Part shown: positions 5,769 to 61,465 of the stretch, piece after piece
Layout: each line of letters starts with the position of its first letter
Position numbering within the stretch: the stretch's first letter is position 1
Assembly (NCBI GenBank): GCA_038256975.1
Contig: JBBSJU010000002.1
Location: forward strand, 65,064 to 129,063
Source of the DNA: Minisyncoccia bacterium
GTDB taxonomy: Bacteria; Patescibacteriota; Minisyncoccia; Phycocordibacterales; UBA5272
DNA: 64,000 nucleotides
Direction: 5' to 3'
Notes under the pieces: generated by a model
The model's database searches: none
What the model was told of the DNA's origin: nothing
Seen by the model: the letters and a program-made list of their open reading frames with translations, nothing else
Made by a program: the position numbers and the translations under genes

Positions 5769-5858
5769 TGGCGGAGACGGAGAGATTTGAACTCTCGAAC
5801 AAGTTGCCTCGTTGCTTGTTTTCGAAACAAGTGCCTTCAACCACTCAGCCACGTCTCC
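5769..5858 (-). tRNA. tRNA-Ser (anticodon CGA), type II, with encoded CCA
   Basis: Minus-strand sequence GGAGACGTGGCTGAGTGGTTGAAGGCACTTGTTTCGAAAACAAG...GAGAGTTCAAATCTCTCCGTCTCCGCCA. 7-bp acceptor, Ser-type D-loop, anticodon loop UUCGAAA, long variable arm, T-arm GAGAG/UUCAAAU/CUCUC. Confidence 0.8.
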
Positions 5859-5925
5859 AAATTCCATATACGTTATAACAGTTTTATTGTCTTTTTTCAA
5901 AAATGTAGTATATTTGGATGTATTC

Positions 5926-5997
5926 GGCCCTATCGTCTAATGGTTAGGACAGCGGGTTTTCAATCCGTCAATCGGAGTTCGACTCTCCGTAGGGTCA
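5926..5997 (+). tRNA. tRNA-Glu (anticodon TTC)
   Basis: GGCCCTATCGTCTAATGGTTAGGACAGCGGGTTTTCAATCCGTCAATCGGAGTTCGACTCTCCGTAGGGTCA. Glu-like D-arm, anticodon loop UUUUCAA, T-arm CGGAG/UUCGACU/CUCCG. 72 nt, no encoded CCA. Confidence 0.8.
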
Positions 5998-6174
5998 CAT
6001 TAGTATCAATCTTCGAACATATGGTGACGGTCAAGAACGCCTTGCAAAAGCAAGGTGTTCTTGATGTGTGCCTGCCATCACGGTTACCGTGATGGTCGGT
6101 ATCCACAGACACTTGAAGAAAACTCGAATTTCTTTGCTAGGAATGTGTAAGGGTGGTAACCACACCCGCAATCA

Positions 6175-6454: not shown

Positions 6455-7033
6455 TTAACCAACCTGTCTGACCCAATCTCTGGTAATGCTTTCAATTCGC
6501 TCTTGCTCTAATTCAGGTAAGACGTTCGTATGCATGATGATGTTTCTTGAGAGCTCAAGATCATTAAATCTAGAGTTGACCCACGCTTGATCTGGGAAAA
6601 GATCAGAGAAATCTTCCCAGTTTCCAATTATTATCTGAGCCAGATTTCCGAACATAGTATAATAAATTAAAGATGAAGATGAAGACCTTTGCGTGTGGTA
6701 TTTATTTTTTGCTTCCTTTTCTTTTAAACCACTAGCTGCCTTTTTAACTCTTTCAGGAACACATAAATCCCACCAACCTAAACCTTGCCGCTCTGCTAGC
6801 CGAGTAGATATCAGTTCTCTGGCAGAGTTTTCCAAGCAGAAAAAGGCCACATATACTGACGCCATCTTTTCAGCATCATGGACCAGAACTGGATTAAAGT
6901 CATTTTCTTCAATTCTGGCTAACGGGCTAACATCAACATGTAAACCGATTCCCGTGTTTTCCAGCTTTTTCAACTCGTCTTGTGCTAGAAAACCATCGAA
7001 GACTAACCTTTTAAGGTGGCTTATTTTTTTCAT
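6455..7033 (-). CDS. HEPN-motif protein (R-x4-H near C-terminus); putative RNase toxin/abortive-infection effector
   Basis: 192 aa. The C-terminal helix carries LSRNIIMHTNV (R-x4-H), the HEPN catalytic signature. The start codon shares a nucleotide with the stop of the upstream partner at 7033. Confidence 0.5.
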   Translation of the reverse strand: MKKISHLKRLVFDGFLAQDELKKLENTGIGLHVDVSPLARIEENDFNPVLVHDAEKMASVYVAFFCLENSARELISTRLAERQGLGWWDLCVPERVKKAASGLKEKEAKNKYHTQRSSSSSLIYYTMFGNLAQIIIGNWEDFSDLFPDQAWVNSRFNDLELSRNIIMHTNVLPELEQERIESITRDWVRQVG

Positions 7034-7644
7034 TATTCCAATAAGTTATCTCTAATGCTTTTGAAGATAGAATTATAAACACTCACGTCCGTGGTAGCGG
7101 GTAAGTGAATCTGAATGTTGTAATGAAACTCTGCAGGAAGTCCAGAAACAACGAGTGGTTTTTCTTTTCGAATCCCTTCCTCGCTTTCTTTAAAGTCAGT
7201 TTTAATTTCTTTTGGTTGAGGAGAGTCACCAAATTTAGATAATCCAACAAGTGCTTTGAATGTATTGTAATACCGTCCAACAGTCGCCTCATCCTTACCT
7301 GTAATTCGAGAAAATGCCCCCTTTATCTCAACCTCTGATGCCTTATGGATTTCTTGGTCTGTTGCAAATAAATCTTTATATAAATCAATGACTCTTTCGC
7401 CCATTACGTATTGATGTTGAGAGGCATCTTTTAGCCGATCATACGAATCAGTGGGAGTTGCAGCTTCTGTTAGAAAACCTAGTTTCTTTAAAAGAGGAAT
7501 TATGGCTCTATCATTGGAACTACCAAACCCCATTTGCTTAAGAAACTCATTTGTATACTTTATTGGCCTAGCGGCAGCTTTTGCTTTCTGAAAAAAAGCA
7601 GGAAGTCTGTTATTGGAAATAACGTATGGATATGTGTCAGTCAT
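7033..7644 (-). CDS. partner of the HEPN-motif protein (hypothetical; possible antitoxin/sensor)
   Basis: 203-aa ORF that overlaps the downstream HEPN gene by one nucleotide. No known domain recognised. Confidence 0.45.
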   Translation of the reverse strand: MTDTYPYVISNNRLPAFFQKAKAAARPIKYTNEFLKQMGFGSSNDRAIIPLLKKLGFLTEAATPTDSYDRLKDASQHQYVMGERVIDLYKDLFATDQEIHKASEVEIKGAFSRITGKDEATVGRYYNTFKALVGLSKFGDSPQPKEIKTDFKESEEGIRKEKPLVVSGLPAEFHYNIQIHLPATTDVSVYNSIFKSIRDNLLE

Positions 7645-7892: not shown

Positions 7893-8618
7893 ATGAAATA
7901 CTTTAATGTAACCCAAGAAGAAATCGACTTGAGAATGTTCAATATTTTTGTTGGAATAAGTCTTGGTAACAAATTGCTAACTCCTGAACTTTGTAAACAT
8001 TATGTAGAGTGGGCACACAGAAATACAAAAGATAATTGCGTTATATTAATAGCTGATAAAATAGATGCCGTTAACTGGCAAATTTTTAGAGGGCTTTCTA
8101 GAGAAGAGTCTTTGGAGAAAGTAAAAGATAAAGGGTATGGAATTTTAGGCATGTTTGAAAAAGCAAAGAGAACTCTCGCCAAAGAAAAAGAAGATGCGAG
8201 CTACATTTCCAGGGTACATATTATATTTTGGGAAGATATAGTTAATGAAGGCTATACGGAACTCAGAAAAATATTAAATGATGAATACGAAAATAATTTA
8301 GAATTCAAAGAAAGAGTATTGTATTTTGTGAATAAATACTGCGAACTGAGAGATGTTAGTATTCTGTCAGCCGAAGATAAAGATAAGTTGGCTGGCTATA
8401 TTATTGATGAGTTACCGACGCTAATTGGTGGAATATATTGGGATGAAAAGTTGTATAACATGATATTGTATCCAACATACGTAGACAGCGGGATGAGTGA
8501 ATTTGTTTTAGATATTCGTGGTGGGAAATATTTTCATGCAGATAAATTAAAATTAAGACAAATCTGTGTTCTTGTTGAAGACTATCTAGAAAAACCTAAA
8601 ACTATTGAAAAAGAATAG
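7893..8618 (+). CDS. tRNA-dependent cyclodipeptide synthase (CDPS) homologue
   Basis: 241 aa. FNIFVGISLGNKL matches the CDPS Rossmann pocket motif (AlbC IGISAGN, YvmC VGISPFN; catalytic Ser in G-I-S). GYIIDELPTLIGG matches the catalytic Y-x-x-x-E-x-P block (AlbC NYVLAEAP, YvmC EYVIAELPFFIG). W-A...D-x-I...ID spacing resembles AlbC QWAGQRFERTDVVYVDTHID. Confidence 0.65.
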   Translation: MKYFNVTQEEIDLRMFNIFVGISLGNKLLTPELCKHYVEWAHRNTKDNCVILIADKIDAVNWQIFRGLSREESLEKVKDKGYGILGMFEKAKRTLAKEKEDASYISRVHIIFWEDIVNEGYTELRKILNDEYENNLEFKERVLYFVNKYCELRDVSILSAEDKDKLAGYIIDELPTLIGGIYWDEKLYNMILYPTYVDSGMSEFVLDIRGGKYFHADKLKLRQICVLVEDYLEKPKTIEKE

Positions 8619-10142: not shown

Positions 10143-10229
10143 GGAGGATTGGATGAGTGGTTTAAATCAGCGGTTTACTAAACCGCCGACGGGTAAAACT
10201 GTCCGTGAGTTCGAATCTCACATCCTCCG
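10143..10229 (+). tRNA. type-II (Ser-like) tRNA; a canonical 7-nt anticodon loop UUACUAA gives anticodon ACU
   Basis: GGAGGATTGGATGAGTGGTTTAAATC A GCGGT TTACTAA ACCGC, a 19-nt variable arm, GTGAG TTCGAAT CTCAC, ATCCTCC G. 7-bp acceptor, Ser-type D-loop (GAGUGGUU.AA), perfect T-arm. Confidence 0.7.
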
Positions 10230-10388
10230 CTCGTGTAAAAAAGCCCTAACAAGGGCATTTTTTATTGAGCGGAGGATAGAAAGTGCTTAATGCACTTTCG
10301 TGTGAGATTCGAAAAGCTTTCCGTTATTTGTGAGGAGCTTTACTCCGAACAAATCGGAAAGGTGTACTGCTCCTGTAAGGAGAGAAAT

Positions 10389-11484: not shown

Positions 11485-11746
11485 AGAAAGATATCCCGAC
11501 TCACATGCCTCAGCAAGACACTCCAAAAAGCGCTAGAATATCTTTATAAGGCTTGAGAGCGTGGGTACTGAACTCACATGGCCCGCCAAACCAAAATTCC
11601 ACACTTTCTTTAGGTGTGGAATTTTGTGTTTCAAGCGGTATGACGGCGAGATTCGAAAGCCGGACTGAAGCCACTATATGAGTAAAGCGAATTGTGGCGA
11701 AGGAGGCGGGGTCGCGCAAAATTTGTGAAGCAAATTTATGTGTGAC

Positions 11747-11767
11747 CGAATCTCACATCCTCCGCTC
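11747..11767 (+). repeat. direct repeat of the tRNA 3' end (CGAATCTCACATCCTCCGCTC), att-like, copy 3
   Basis: 21/21 identical to tRNA 10212-10232. It closes a roughly 1.35-kb segment that begins at copy 2. Confidence 0.6.
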
Positions 11768-11794
11768 TAAGATAAGCAAAAAGCAGGTATCTGT

Positions 11795-24642: not shown

Positions 24643-24908
24643 GCTTGTACTCCTTGCTGTTGGAACGAAAGTGCCCGTGCCGGGCGTTCCGAGGATGTAA
24701 GTCCCCGTCGTTGCATTTCCAATTTCAATACCAGACGATGAGCTTTCCACTCACGTAGAGTTTCGCTGGTGAAGCCCTGGGCGCCAGCATTTGCTTCGTC
24801 AATCTTGTCGTCGAGCGCACGATGCGCTGCGACAATACGGCTATCCGGCATCGCACCGGAAATATTTTGTGCGACACTCACAGCGCTTTCGATGGAGATG
24901 TTCGACAT
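24639..24908 (-). CDS. DUF465 (YdcH)-like small protein (GC-rich islet)
   Basis: 89 aa. AAHRALDDKIDEA...ETLREWKAHRLVLKLEMQRRG resembles the coiled DUF465 pattern. High-GC codon usage. Confidence 0.4.
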   Translation of the reverse strand: MSNISIESAVSVAQNISGAMPDSRIVAAHRALDDKIDEANAGAQGFTSETLREWKAHRLVLKLEMQRRGLTSSERPARALSFQQQGVQA

Positions 24909-25058
24909 GATTACCTCGTGAGCCCCTTTTGAGTAAACTACAATGTATTCGGGCTTTTAAATACAGAGTAGTCTTTATAAAGAACAACCTTTCCTTTATA
25001 CTACTAAACTCATTTTTGTAAAGGCTACTGTCCCCAGGTTCCTTGATACAATTAACGC

Positions 25059-46671: not shown

Positions 46672-47148
46672 TTATGTATTTCCTAAATCAATGATTCGAT
46701 TAAAATGAGCAGAGCTTACTGATTGAATTGAAAGTCGAGACCCTTTCCGCGCCAACATGATTCCTGCTAACTTGTGGTCCCTCTTTATTTCTTCCAATGA
46801 TACTGCTCGTGCAAGTTTTTTGACGAATGCAAAATCTACACATTCCCAGATAGGTTTTTCTTTTGTTGATTTTGAATCAAAGTGTTCATCCTTGGGATTA
46901 AGAGCACTTGCATCTGGGTGTGACTTGCTTACCACTTTTGCTATGCCGTAGACTCCTGTAAGTTTGGTGCTTGAGTGATAAAAGAGGGCTAAATCCCCCA
47001 CTTTCATTTGATCTCGCATATAGTTGCGGGCTTGGTAGTTTCGCACGCCGTTCCAAGGGGTTTTCTTGTCTTTCTTAAGATCGTCTATGGAATAGCAATC
47101 AGGTTCGCTTTTGATAAGCCAGTGGTTCATAGAGTATTTGACAATCAT
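46672..47148 (-). CDS. EVE (PUA-like) domain protein
   Basis: MNHWLIKSEPDCYSIDDL... is the EVE N-terminal consensus. The true start may be the Met at 47130. The stop abuts the DUF45 start. Confidence 0.7.
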   Translation of the reverse strand: MIVKYSMNHWLIKSEPDCYSIDDLKKDKKTPWNGVRNYQARNYMRDQMKVGDLALFYHSSTKLTGVYGIAKVVSKSHPDASALNPKDEHFDSKSTKEKPIWECVDFAFVKKLARAVSLEEIKRDHKLAGIMLARKGSRLSIQSVSSAHFNRIIDLGNT

Positions 47149-47187
47149 ATCATTGAGGGTTGCCTATTGACGCACTATGATTATGAT

Positions 47188-47215
47188 TTGACAGAGCAAT
47201 TAATTAATGTAATAT
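47188..47215 (+). promoter_or_regulatory. promoter TTGACA-16-TAATAT driving candidate ncRNA 1
   Basis: TTGACA 47188-47193, 16-nt spacer, TAATAT 47210-47215. Confidence 0.55.
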
Positions 47216-47221
47216 GATATC

Positions 47222-47545
47222 CAGCTAGTTGATGGGTAAACATTCTTGGTGCAGATGCTTGGTCAGAAGATCGAGAGTAGCTGCGAGTTCAGGGGAAGTC
47301 ACAATGGACTCCTCACAACTCAGCCAGTCGTAGAGGTTTACTATCGAAGTTGGCGGAATCCGCTTCGGAGTGGGATGAAGTAGGTGTTTAAGGTTTGCCC
47401 CATGCAGCCTAAGACGCCGAAATAACATTTGGAGGAAACATGCACCGGGCTTGCGCACTTTGTCGCTTGGCGGGAATTGTTAACATTCGCCCTGATACTA
47501 GCTGCTCCACGCCGCCGTGCTCACACTCGGCGGATTTTCATTTTC
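47222..47545 (+). ncRNA. candidate structured sRNA 1 (about 320 nt, GC-richer than surroundings), class unknown
   Basis: Bounded by the promoter above and an intrinsic terminator. The ends pair (CAGCTAGT at 47226 with ACTAGCTG at about 47497). Internal hairpins include CGAAG..CTTCG. No convincing ORF with an RBS. Confidence 0.4.
47512..47545 (+). terminator. intrinsic terminator of candidate ncRNA 1
   Basis: CCGCCG tgctcacact CGGCGG, then ATTTTCATTTT. Confidence 0.6.
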
Positions 47546-47553
47546 CGAGAATG

Positions 47554-47582
47554 TTGACAGTTTGTTATGCATGATGTACTCT
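47554..47582 (+). promoter_or_regulatory. promoter TTGACA-17-TACTCT driving candidate ncRNA 2
   Basis: TTGACA 47554-47559. The -10 hexamer is weak. Confidence 0.4.
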
Positions 47583-47587
47583 AATCT

Positions 47588-47855
47588 TTGGTTGATTCAG
47601 GTAGAGCATTCGCACTATTGCCCGGGGGCAATACGTTTAGTTAAGTCGTGTTCATACCGATTCGAATGGGATGTATACACCATGGTCGATAGAGCGGTTG
47701 AGATCCCTCTGGGCTTTCCTGCAAATATCCCATGAGACCAGCGTGCGCGCGAAGTTGCGCTGCAAAGGTTTGTGTCCATTCACCTGAATCAACCTTCTTT
47801 TCTTTGGTAGTGGGAACTGCCTTGCCTCGCTGCTGACCACAGCGAGGCTTTTTTA
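47588..47855 (+). ncRNA. candidate structured sRNA 2 (about 270 nt) with a 13-bp terminal closing stem, class unknown
   Basis: GGTTGATTCAGGT (47590-47602) pairs with ACCTGAATCAACC (47782-47794). Internal hairpins include TATTGCCCGGGGGCAATA. It shares the 5' motif ATTCAGGYAGAGCAT with candidate 3. It ends with the terminator at 47824-47855. Confidence 0.45.
47824..47855 (+). terminator. intrinsic terminator of candidate ncRNA 2
   Basis: CCTCGCTG ctgaccac AGCGAGG, then CTTTTTT. Confidence 0.65.
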
Positions 47856-47884
47856 TTGACGTAAAAGAAAAAAGTCGATAGTAT
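47856..47884 (+). promoter_or_regulatory. promoter TTGACG-17-TAGTAT driving candidate ncRNA 3
   Basis: TTGACG 47856-47861, 17-nt spacer, TAGTAT 47879-47884. Confidence 0.5.
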
Positions 47885-47890
47885 ATGACT

Positions 47891-48054
47891 ATTCAGGCAG
47901 AGCATGTGGTTGAAGTAGCGCGCGTACCTCCCCCGGTTCGCCACGTATTCCCCACATGGAACCCTTGTGAAGATTATCAGGGGTTCGCCTGAACCTCATC
48001 TTGCATACTATTGATGGCCTTATCTTCCTCGGGTCATCCCCGCCCGAATCAGGG
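47891..48054 (+). ncRNA. candidate structured sRNA 3 (about 165 nt), class unknown
   Basis: Starts ATTCAGGCAGAGCAT. Internal pairings (CATGTGG/CCACATG; TTCAGGC/GCCTGAA). Ends with the terminator CCGCCC gaatca GGGCGG TTTTTT (48030-48053). Confidence 0.45.
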
Positions 48055-48081
48055 CGGTTTTTTATTGTATTGTGAAATCTT

Positions 48082-48483
48082 TTAGAGTGTAAACAGTAAT
48101 TCAAAGTTAGTTTTAATTCCCGCTTCTTCGGCAGTGCCTTCGTCCACACTTCTTTTCTTGAGAATCATTTTTCCATTTTCTTTAAATACACCAATTTCAG
48201 TTCCGCCTCCTGCCCACCAGCAAAGAATTCCAGATAATTCTCCAGCTTCAAGTTCTGTGGGTTGTACAGAAGCACAGGTTCCATCATGCGTACCCGCATC
48301 AGAGTCTTTTCCATTGACACTAACGGTTACTTTTGTTTGCGGAGGATTCACTCCTTCGGCTTCTTTTGTTTCAAATGACCAGGTAATTGCAATAGGTGCG
48401 GGGTTTTGTTTTTGTTGATAATTGAAGCATAAATAAATACTTGCGATGACAACTAGGAGAATGACGGTTGCTTGTTTGTACAT
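48082..48483 (-). CDS. hypothetical secreted/membrane-anchored protein
   Basis: 133 aa with an N-terminal hydrophobic helix (ATVILLVVIASIYLCF). Confidence 0.4.
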   Translation of the reverse strand: MYKQATVILLVVIASIYLCFNYQQKQNPAPIAITWSFETKEAEGVNPPQTKVTVSVNGKDSDAGTHDGTCASVQPTELEAGELSGILCWWAGGGTEIGVFKENGKMILKKRSVDEGTAEEAGIKTNFELLFTL

Positions 48484-48584: not shown

Positions 48585-48989
48585 TTATTCGAGTTTTTTG
48601 TAATCTTGGCACTGTACATACAACTCATCGCAACGTGCCAAAATTCGAAGAAACGTCGGGTCTTCTCGAAGTCCCGACAGAATGCGGATAACTGGGACCA
48701 TCAAGGGTGGTCCATGAGAAATTTCCAGCTCCGCAAAATCGTCCGTTGACATCTGTTTTTTTCGATGGATGCCGACTGAAGTAGTCAGGCCATCCTTCAT
48801 CCAGCGAATACTCCCTGTTTCGCTAAATGACCCCATGAATAGGGCGTTAGGCACTTTCAGGGACAGCCTTCCAACCAACTCTAGAAACAACGCATTAGGT
48901 ATCTCGTGGGCGTTCACTATTAGCTCCTTCTCACCCCAAGCCAATCTTGGGTACAGGAGTAACATACCACATATATATGCACAGGTCAA
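48585..48989 (-). CDS. hypothetical protein
   Basis: 134-aa ORF. No family recognised. Confidence 0.3.
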   Translation of the reverse strand: MTCAYICGMLLLYPRLAWGEKELIVNAHEIPNALFLELVGRLSLKVPNALFMGSFSETGSIRWMKDGLTTSVGIHRKKQMSTDDFAELEISHGPPLMVPVIRILSGLREDPTFLRILARCDELYVQCQDYKKLE

Positions 48990-53677: not shown

Positions 53678-54001
53678 TTAAAGGCCTTTAATTTCTTGCA
53701 TTACCTGCTCTACCGTGGGTACTTCTGGAGTTGTTTGTTTGGCTACCGTTCTTTCGCTTCCAGCCGGCTCGTTAATCTTAAGGTTTACTCGCGCGTTGTT
53801 TTTCATTCCAACGACTCGGAGAATGGTACGCAACGCTTTCGCTGTTGCCCCTTCTTTTCCAATGACCTTGCCCATATCAGCAGGATTGATATCAAGAGTA
53901 AGGAGTACTCCCATCTCATCAACTTTTCGAGCTACTTGTACATCATCCGGATTGTCTACTAATGCCTTTACTACCGTTTCGAGAAATACTTTGTCTTCCA
54001 T
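53678..54001 (-). CDS. KH-domain RNA-binding protein (YlqC/UPF0109-like)
   Basis: MEDKVFLETVVKALVDNPDDVQV...MGKVIGKEGATAKALRTILRVVG. The start is taken at the internal Met to match family length. Confidence 0.55.
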   Translation of the reverse strand: MEDKVFLETVVKALVDNPDDVQVARKVDEMGVLLTLDINPADMGKVIGKEGATAKALRTILRVVGMKNNARVNLKINEPAGSERTVAKQTTPEVPTVEQVMQEIKGL

Positions 54002-54115
54002 AGGGTTGTGTATGTTATAGAGCGTTTGTAAGCACGCGCTTACGCAGTACATAATATCTTGCTCACGTGCTTTGGTCAAACAAAAACATCTGCGCGAGGC
54101 AGATGTTCTGGAGAT

Positions 54116-61165: not shown

Positions 61166-61220
61166 AAGGAGTACATAATTGACACAGCGATATATTGTGT
61201 TATAGTGTCTTTTATCCGCA

Positions 61221-61463
61221 ATGACGCGGTGTAAAGAGGTCTTTCCAATGAAAACTTTCAGTAAAATTTTCGTGGTTGCCGGGCTGTTTGCTCTTACTTT
61301 CATCCTGGTTTCCAGTGGTTACGCAATTGTTTCCGACCGTAGTTTTTTCGCCGCTGCTGGCACAGTTGCCCTCTGGCTGTTCACAGCTCTGGCTTTCTTG
61401 ACCCTCTTTTTTTCCACCTGGCTGACAACCACAGACGGTCGCCGCGCCGCTTTGGGGCTGTAG
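61221..61463 (+). CDS. hypothetical small membrane protein
   Basis: 80 aa, two TM helices. Confidence 0.35.
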   Translation: MTRCKEVFPMKTFSKIFVVAGLFALTFILVSSGYAIVSDRSFFAAAGTVALWLFTALAFLTLFFSTWLTTTDGRRAALGL

Positions 61464-61465
61464 CC

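Follow-up and report, generated by a model that had tools for sequence, protein, structure and literature searches.

Three tandem candidate non-coding RNA genes of no known family in the chromosome of a Minisyncoccia bacterium

The window analyzed here is a 64-kb stretch (64,000 nucleotides [nt]) of contig JBBSJU010000002.1 from a Minisyncoccia bacterium, part of a gene-dense, Paceibacteria-type chromosome of the Candidate Phyla Radiation (CPR)/Patescibacteria that is 86% coding and has a GC content of 0.41. Between the EVE gene and orf133 lies a non-coding gap with a GC content of 0.476, against 0.35-0.41 in its flanks, and this gap holds an array of three units (Table 1) that adjoins the EVE-YgjP(DUF45) pair in divergent orientation. 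We consider it probable, from comparative and folding analyses, that the three units are genuine non-coding RNA genes that stand alone and belong to no known family. The initial annotation had likewise proposed novel, independently bounded non-coding RNA candidates, and this agrees with our finding neither an Rfam family nor a called open reading frame (ORF) for them.

Table 1. Positions of the array, its predicted elements and its counterparts in relatives. Positions refer to the window unless a related contig (L number) is named; RNA ends, helices and promoters are predictions.
Feature	Position	Strand	Details
Non-coding gap holding the RNA array	47149-48081		933 nt, largest non-coding stretch in the window
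EVE gene	46672-47148	-	Borders the gap on the low-coordinate side
orf133, small membrane-protein gene	48082-48483	-	Borders the gap on the high-coordinate side
Three-unit array	47188-48064	+	Each unit with a sigma70-type promoter and an intrinsic terminator
Unit 1 promoter	47188-47215	+	-35 TTGACA 47188-47193, spacer 16 nt, -10 TAATAT 47210-47215
Unit 1 RNA	47222-47540	+	~290-320 nt; start inferred from the -10 position
Unit 1 terminal helix	47222-47229 / 47497-47504	+	Followed by a UGAU/UGAU internal loop and GGGU/GCCC
Unit 1 conserved block GGGUAAACAUUC	47234-47245	+	
Unit 1 conserved block UCGGAGUGGGA	47365-47375	+	
Unit 1 conserved block UUUGGAGGAAAC	47428-47439	+	Shine-Dalgarno (SD)-like
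Unit 1 conserved hairpin GCGCACUUUGUCGC	47453-47466	+	
Unit 1 terminator stem CCGCCG/CGGCGG	47512-47517 / 47528-47533	+	Then AUUUUCAUUUU
Unit 2 promoter	47554-47582	+	-35 TTGACA 47554-47559, spacer 17 nt, -10 TACTCT 47577-47582; unchanged in L002-L004
Unit 2 RNA	47589-47856	+	~265 nt; minimum free energy (MFE) -100.5 kcal/mol, fold z -3.8
Unit 2 closing helix	47590-47602 / 47782-47794	+	13 bp, 100% complementary; then AGAG junction and two branched arms
Unit 2 pyrimidine-rich single strand CUUCUUUUCUUU	~47795-47806	+	Then a small hairpin before the terminator
Unit 2 terminator	47824-47848	+	Then T6 (U6 in the RNA)
Unit 3 promoter	47856-47884	+	-35 TTGACG 47856-47861, spacer 17 nt, -10 TAGTAT 47879-47884
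Unit 3 RNA	47890-48064	+	~170 nt; MFE -66.4 kcal/mol, fold z -4.4
Unit 3 closing helix	47892-47898 / 47987-47993	+	7 bp; then AGAG junction
Unit 3 arm P2	47903-47909 / 47952-47958	+	
Unit 3 arm P3	47959-47967 / 47978-47986	+	
Unit 3 tail hairpin	48013-48038	+	Invariant loop UUAUCUUCCUC
Unit 3 terminator	48040-48057	+	Then T6 (U6 in the RNA)
Probable unit 1 orthologue	L136:474-760	-	Between orf133 homologue and EVE; also in L134, L135, L138-L140 (EVE 80%)
Short sRNA-like unit	L142:935-1124	-	~95 nt in a 190-nt gap upstream of EVE (EVE 76%)

The three promoters and three terminators that the initial annotation had described were all located. The pattern TTGACR-N16-18-TANNNT occurs eight times in the window (both strands, 128 kb), and three of the eight fall on one strand within the 0.9 kb of the array, where ~0.03 would be expected (shuffled sequence gave 4.5 per 128 kb). 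In the sister lineage (L002-L004, with 92% amino acid identity in EVE), the whole array occupies the same place, and the two substitutions in the promoter region of unit 1 (47186 and 47194) are both immediately outside the hexamers; the -10 region of unit 3 reads TAGTGT/TATAAC in L002, so that its exact -10 and start are uncertain. The terminator of unit 1 is weakened by its 10-nt loop and the interruption of its U-tract and was left unflagged by the terminator scan. Each unit appears to have what generally marks a bacterial small RNA (sRNA) gene, namely its own promoter, an intrinsic terminator and no translated ORF.

Two repeats overlap these signals. An 18-nt direct repeat (47155-47172 and 47844-47861, 78% identical) ends in TATTGACG and supplies a second TTGACG -35-like hexamer (47167-47172) upstream of the unit 1 promoter, which may belong to an additional promoter or to the divergent promoter of EVE. 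A 14-nt inverted repeat (47236-47249 and 47545-47558, 86% complementary) links the 5′ block GUAAACAUUCUUGG of unit 1 with a segment past its terminator that overlaps the -35 of unit 2; a G-to-A difference at 47547 in L002 turns a G.U pair into A-U, and the repeat may represent an alternative pairing upon read-through of the weak terminator.

Nucleotide identity to L004 is 99.4% for unit 1, 96.7% for unit 2 and 97.1% for unit 3, and 81.6% for YgjP, 89.7% for EVE, 86.8% for orf133, 88.0% for TrhO and 88.2% for DnaB; differences in EVE and orf133 sit mainly at third codon positions (36/49 and 38/53), as real genes should show. The body of unit 1 (47195-47524) has no change in 330 nt against L002-L004, and the first differences beyond 47524 lie in the terminator loop and immediately after its stem. 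Unit 2 differs from L002 by nine substitutions, seven unpaired and two paired in the predicted structure, the latter both pair-preserving, and unit 3 by five, three unpaired and two in the stem of the tail hairpin, again pair-preserving (G.U to A-U and C-G to U.G). The stem of this hairpin has thus changed on both strands around an invariant loop, and the two units together show 14 substitutions, of which 10 are unpaired, 4 pair-preserving and none pair-breaking; 15 of 16 substitutions were transitions. As 55-69% of the nucleotides in units 2 and 3 are paired, this placement is unlike the neutral prediction, and by our calculation the chance that at least seven of the nine changes in unit 2 fall in its 31% unpaired fraction is about 0.005 (binomial P). 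The units therefore appear to be under nucleotide-level, structure-preserving purifying selection, and conservation of the array, in sequence and in structure, seems to exceed what the neutral rate would leave.

Units 2 and 3 are predicted to share a core. The 13-bp stem that had been proposed to close unit 2 was recovered as a perfect pairing, and the 5′ end of each of the two units carries the 15-mer ATTCAGGYAGAGCAT (47595 and 47891), which the window has nowhere else. Their closing helix P1 is UUCAGGY/RCCUGAA, with a covarying innermost pair (U-A in unit 2, C-G in unit 3), and is followed by the AGAG junction, a P2 that starts CAU...AUG and a P3 that starts GRA...UUC, with no other junction nucleotides; both units also expose a pyrimidine-rich stretch ahead of the terminator. 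Outside this core they are unrelated. The paralogy suggested earlier from the common 5′ end is thus extended to the 3′ strand of the closing helix and to the layout of the three-way junction, but it does not reach the whole units, and they are best described as apparent partial paralogues whose likeness is confined to helix and junction.

Unit 1 is built differently. Its ends, described as paired in the initial annotation, are predicted to pair as CAGCUAGU/ACUAGCUG, enclosing about six predicted hairpins. A probable orthologue lies in the same orientation between EVE and the orf133 homologue in L136 and five other contigs with EVE at 80% identity (Table 1), as a single unit with TTTGACA-17-TATTAT, a length of ~255 nt and a terminator of 9 bp that runs into U7; its predicted fold is very stable (MFE -125 kcal/mol, z = -8.0), with an 18-bp terminal helix closing a second helix and six hairpins. 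When the terminal helices are aligned on their common AGCUG, one pair differs by a double compensatory change (A-U to G-C), three differ on one side only in a wobble-compatible way, and none is disrupted. Directly after the helix both RNAs carry GGGYAAACAYUC, followed 116 nt later in one and 119 nt later in the other by UCGGAGUGG, the only co-linear exact match of at least 9 nt, and they further share an SD-like UUUGG(G)AGG..AAAC, the hairpin GCGCACNUUGNCGC, UUGUKAA and UCGCCC. In both, AAACAYUC can pair with GGAGUG, the C-to-U difference giving G.U, which suggests a long-range helix. A C/D-box or kink-turn reading of the UGAU/UGAU loop and the P4-3′-like motif noted earlier for unit 1 were dropped, since L136 has Watson-Crick pairs in place of the loop and does not keep the RNase P-like motifs. 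Unit 1 would thus stand for a fast-evolving RNA family of ~255-300 nt, with a long terminal helix around about six hairpins, that occupies the orf133-EVE position in some relatives.

A further candidate lies in L142, where a short unit with TTGATA-17-TAGTAT and three hairpins begins with CCAGCUAGGUGA (unit 1 begins with CCAGCUAGUUGA) and has at its 3′ end a CU-rich terminator tail, CUCUUUCUUUUUUCUUUCC, resembling that of unit 2. With three units here, one in L136 and one of ~95 nt in L142, the RNA genes of this locus seem to be quickly remodeled between genera.

The gene order TrmD-L21-RecR-DnaB-TrhO-(slot)-EVE-YgjP-hypothetical-Pif1 is conserved in lineages with 72-79% EVE identity (L005-L011, L144), and the synteny of EVE-YgjP-hypothetical-Pif1 with TrmD, L21, RecR, DnaB and TrhO extends over at least eight related lineages. 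In most synteny-keeping relatives the slot is taken by HIT, MazG-like, ABC-transporter, OMP-decarboxylase/PRTase or tRNA_edit genes; EVE-YgjP-hypothetical-Pif1 stands without any RNA genes in at least six related lineages, and orf133 homologues (50% identity) in L005 and L008 have no RNA gene alongside. Because relatives keep these genes without the RNAs, we regard the array as an occupant of a variable slot and not as a partner of EVE/YgjP or orf133.

Turnover in this slot is also seen in its protein genes. Between orf133 and TrhO the window has orf134 (48585-48989, - strand), which is 75% identical to a 109-amino acid (aa) ORF in L262:99-428, and L002 has at 2157-2582 an unrelated 141-aa ORF; the contig of L262 (orf133 83%) ends at the orf133 gene. 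Apparent intergenic gaps in L144 (3180-3516) and L008 (8641-9553) hold uncalled small membrane-protein ORFs, not RNAs, and under-annotation of small ORFs seems common in related assemblies. EVE itself has 158 aa here and in L002, with a 6-residue N-terminal extension (MIVKYS-), and all other close homologues start MNYWLIKSE and have 152 aa; translation may in fact begin at the internal ATG, in which case the intergenic region would gain 18 nt.

The initial annotation had tied the array to an EVE-DUF45 defense operon, possibly as guide RNAs of that system. In its wider form this reading makes the array the RNA part of a defense or mobile system (a guide, an antitoxin or a retron-like RNA with EVE-YgjP(DUF45)-Pif1) or the remnant of a lost element, and the divergent adjacency to EVE-YgjP, the hypervariable slot, the fast shifts in RNA content and the end pairing of unit 2, which resembles retron a1/a2 repeats, speak for it. 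We nevertheless consider it very unlikely, as the EVE-YgjP block is RNA-free in most relatives and lies among housekeeping genes, EVE homologues of ~50% (at most 57%) identity come, among the matches listed, from many phyla, and the strong purifying selection inferred above is not what a decaying remnant would show. The proteins of the window are mostly housekeeping by Pfam (~65 ORFs): TGT, MurB, TsaD, FtsZ/FtsA, YbeY, HisRS, Pth, S1, ParB, GatB, GAPDH, transketolase, RelA/SpoT, TopA, a Pif1-like helicase, DnaB, RecR, L21, TrmD, a KhpA/B-type KH protein (53678-54079), RNase R and SMC. Among the same ORFs, no reverse transcriptase (RVT domain), Cas, Tas, TnpB/IscB, IS110, integrase, Nop-domain, TROVE/Ro or RtcB protein and no toxin partner was found. 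A retron msr-msd and a bacterial Y RNA (YrlA/Yrn) were rejected on these grounds, the latter also for want of a Y_RNA match at E ≤ 10. Guide-RNA arrays (CRISPR, TIGR-Tas, OMEGA/HEARO, bridge RNA) were rejected too: repeats are limited to chance-size two-copy ones, with no short repeats, spacers or terminal inverted repeats, and there was no HEARO match; the TIGR-Tas arrays described before (PMC12045711) do not fit a locus with neither repeats nor a Tas gene. Comparison of the array with phages and plasmids by blastn gave no similarity, and pattern scans of IMG/VR gave only chance matches without the closing strand. Adjacency to the EVE/DUF45 pair is therefore not evidence for a defense or guide-RNA system.

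That at least one unit is a housekeeping RNA in extremely divergent form (RNase P RNA, transfer-messenger RNA [tmRNA], signal recognition particle [SRP] RNA or 6S RNA) has a slim probability in our view. The core sizes (~300, 200 and 110 nt), the pairing of 5′ and 3′ ends, the strong promoters and, in unit 1, conservation like that of rRNA would suit such RNAs, of which no recognizable copy was found in the window; GGGGAAGUCAC and CACCGGGCUUG in unit 1 recall the two P4 strands (GGAAAGUCC ... ACAGAAnnnGGCUUA), and the start of unit 2, GGUUGAUUCAGG, resembles the tmRNA 5′ end, GGGGCUGAUUCUGG. However, Rfam 15 at gathering thresholds found only four tRNAs in the whole window, a scan at E ≤ 1 added nothing relevant, and a scan of 47000-48250 (1.25 kb) at E ≤ 10 with relaxed filters gave only noise; the L136 orthologue matched no family either. 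The units were thus assigned to no housekeeping or other family, in line with the earlier judgement that RNase P, SRP, tmRNA and 6S hallmarks were not convincing. For RNase P RNA (types A/B, archaeal and T), no covariance model matched in 47000-48250 at the gathering threshold or E ≤ 10, or in L136, and the two P4-like motifs form at most 4-5 bp and have no equivalent in L136. ARAGORN found the four tRNAs of the window and no tmRNA, six-frame translation gave no alanine-rich tag ORF, and there is no T-arm or CCA. Rfam had no match to SRP RNA, and its domain IV motif (GNRA ... AGCA) was not seen by eye in the sequence; nor did 6S RNA match, and the predicted folds are multi-branched and not rods, though the Rfam 6S model misses divergent members and this exclusion is not absolute. 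Moreover, most relatives have no such genes at this locus, and the change between genera is far too rapid for an RNA that is universal; the real housekeeping RNAs can lie elsewhere in a genome of which the window covers only 64 kb. Group I introns occur in tRNA genes of Patescibacteria (PMC13011429); an intron of this kind or an intron-split tRNA was rejected here, with no Intron_gpI (RF00028) match at E ≤ 10, no tRNA halves and a unit 3 core of 105 nt, which is too short.

Coding potential, which the initial annotation had denied, needs one correction. Gene calls in three related contigs leave the gap empty, and eight translated gap ORFs had no match in a collection of 15 billion proteins, a clean test only for those starting with ATG since GTG and TTG starts were translated as V and L. 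A 44-aa cysteine-rich ORF (47440-47574) behind a perfect GGAGG-N5-ATG (47430-47442) had been overlooked, however, and unit 1 could on this basis be an mRNA with a long structured leader, its conservation coming from leader and coding constraints, all the more as the SD-like block is conserved in L136 (GGGAGGUGA). We find this hard to credit: the frame crosses the unit 1 terminator and enters the unit 2 -35; its three substitutions (two non-synonymous, one synonymous) sit in the terminator loop and flank; neither a start codon nor an ORF follows the L136 block; the peptide is absent from the protein collection although its DNA was assembled at least four times; and the absence of any change over 330 nt, with every potentially synonymous site unchanged too, is unlike coding sequence. 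The substitutions of the region as a whole are likewise non-coding in pattern.

Several observations weigh against the array as a set of RNA genes under selection. Unit 1 alone folds no better than shuffled sequences (z -0.9), and its sequence similarity to the L136 RNA is marginal (global alignment z 2.4; none by nhmmer, E > 10). A covariance model built from unit 3 misses unit 2, and only two to three distinct lineages were compared, so that covariation statistics are weak. Exact-pattern scans, which could miss divergent copies, found no homologues in GTDB representatives, JGI metagenomes or IMG/VR: a strict pattern of the unit 3 core had no match in 185,579 GTDB representative genomes (the source genome is not in the set), and the 5′ motif with a purine/pyrimidine-coded flank had two chance matches in JGI metagenomes, inside coding genes. 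The family may be very young, or the patterns too strict. Finally, an identical tract (47096-47524, bar the two promoter-flank changes) reaches 53 nt into the EVE coding region, and recent recombination between lineages could explain part of the conservation of unit 1. Divergence is not uniform within the block, however (0/330 in unit 1, 21/533 downstream), and the differences lie exactly in non-critical positions. That low divergence reflects recent recombination or horizontal exchange around fortuitous promoter- and terminator-like junk DNA, as the tract into EVE and the extremely narrow known distribution of the RNAs might suggest, is highly improbable, given substitutions placed exactly in the terminator loop, spacers and predicted loops, three promoter-terminator pairs on one strand far above chance, the significant folds of units 2 and 3, an independently diverged and very stably folded RNA gene in the same position in L134-L140, and the compactness of CPR genomes.

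Known RNAs offer partial parallels to the array. Tandem multicopy sRNA loci include Listeria LhrC1-5 and sRNAs with UCCC/CU-rich seeds of the RsaE/RoxS type. Like these, our units are adjacent, partly paralogous genes on one strand, each with its own predicted promoter and intrinsic terminator, and with exposed pyrimidine-rich loops or tails that could pair with SD regions; unlike them, units 2 and 3 have a large three-way-junction domain (110-200 nt) and are alike only in helix and junction, they have no sequence or Rfam relationship, and target prediction was not significant. The raiA motif, OLE and ROOL/GOLLD resemble the array as stand-alone, highly structured, strongly conserved RNAs without a known partner that are GC-enriched against an AT-rich genome, and unit 1 and its orthologue share with them a long closing helix round a multi-hairpin core; the units are, however, smaller than OLE, ROOL and GOLLD, match no Rfam family, and are known from few related Paceibacteria-type lineages with faster turnover between genera. 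RNase P RNA is similar to unit 1 in size (~300 nt), paired ends, high conservation and short P4-strand-like motifs, but unit 1 has no 8-bp P4, none of the other conserved regions and no covariance-model match, and is missing from this locus in most relatives. In tmRNA and tRNA-like RNAs, including Y RNA and YrlA, a terminal helix of 7-13 bp, a short junction strand and two arms recur, AGGYAGAGCA recalls a tRNA D-arm and UGAUUCAGG the tmRNA 5′ end, and Y RNAs also occur as tandem paralogues; the units nevertheless lack a T-arm/T-loop consensus, a CCA/discriminator context and a tag ORF, ARAGORN and Rfam were negative, and no Ro/TROVE or RtcB gene was found among the ~65 ORFs of the window.

Taken together, our best reading is that the units are lineage-restricted, fast-evolving regulatory or structural small RNAs. 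Each would have a near-consensus sigma70 promoter to itself, and transcription would stop at an intrinsic terminator specific to that unit. How they might work can be proposed only tentatively, whether by base pairing or as a scaffold. Units 2 and 3 may act in trans as base-pairing regulators, with low certainty, their conserved CU-rich loop or tail (UCUUCCUC, CCUUCUUUUCUUU) occluding purine-rich ribosome-binding regions and the folded 5′ domain serving as a stability or protein handle; against this, duplexes of the CU-rich tails with 70 start regions of the window (RNAduplex, 64 kb, crude start codons) were no better than those of shuffled tails. Unit 1 could be a protein- or ribosome-binding scaffold or decoy that acts through its conserved single-stranded blocks, among them the SD-like GGAGG that its orthologue keeps without any ORF. 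A bolder version, which we rate as rather doubtful, has unit 1 and its L136 orthologue as a new mid-size structured RNA class of a Paceibacteria-type CPR clade, a ribonucleoprotein (RNP) or ribosome-binding regulator, and units 2 and 3 as a second new family defined by the three-way-junction core; if true, both would rank with the earliest descriptions of dedicated regulatory RNAs in CPR bacteria. The literature we searched held no description of these RNAs, nor of small RNAs from CPR/Patescibacteria.

CPR bacteria have tiny genomes with few recognizable regulators, and here almost 1 kb is given to three strongly expressed-looking, structure-constrained RNAs, one of which shows rRNA-like conservation between sister species and yet is remodeled between genera. 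Provided that they are transcribed, the units offer specific candidates for regulation by RNA or for an RNP function, and new Rfam families could be built from them. They are new as orphans within a familiar kind, bacterial small and medium-sized structured RNAs; what makes them interesting is the host group and the extreme conservation of unit 1, and their significance is limited by the narrow distribution.

Other features of the window are noted briefly. The closest named homologues of the EVE protein come from "Candidatus Paceibacterota" and "Minisyncoccia" metagenome-assembled genomes. Two other GC-rich gaps (24751-25058 and 61166-61465) contain small unannotated ORFs and not RNAs: a short ORF at 24751-24908 (- strand), and at 61249-61464 (+ strand) a small membrane protein of ~70 aa with a TTGACA promoter at 61179. 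The 310-nt gap at 11485-11794 (GC 0.458), with no Rfam match, has a terminator-like hairpin (AAUUCCACAC...GUGUGGAAUU, then U-rich) 3′ of the upstream gene and a GC-rich segment with a T-loop-like GGCGAGAUUCGAAAGCC. As a toxin-antitoxin or defense-type module, EVE-YgjP is less plausible than a pair of adjoining genes, HEPN_Swt1-like (192 aa) and DUF5343 (203 aa), at 6455-7644 (- strand) beside a tRNA cluster (5769-5998). Between this tRNA cluster and another tRNA gene group (10143-10230) lies a 241-aa ORF (7893-8618, + strand) that Pfam matches weakly, below the cutoff of 27 bits (24.9 bits, E 2e-5), to cyclodipeptide synthase, an enzyme type that uses aminoacyl-tRNAs.

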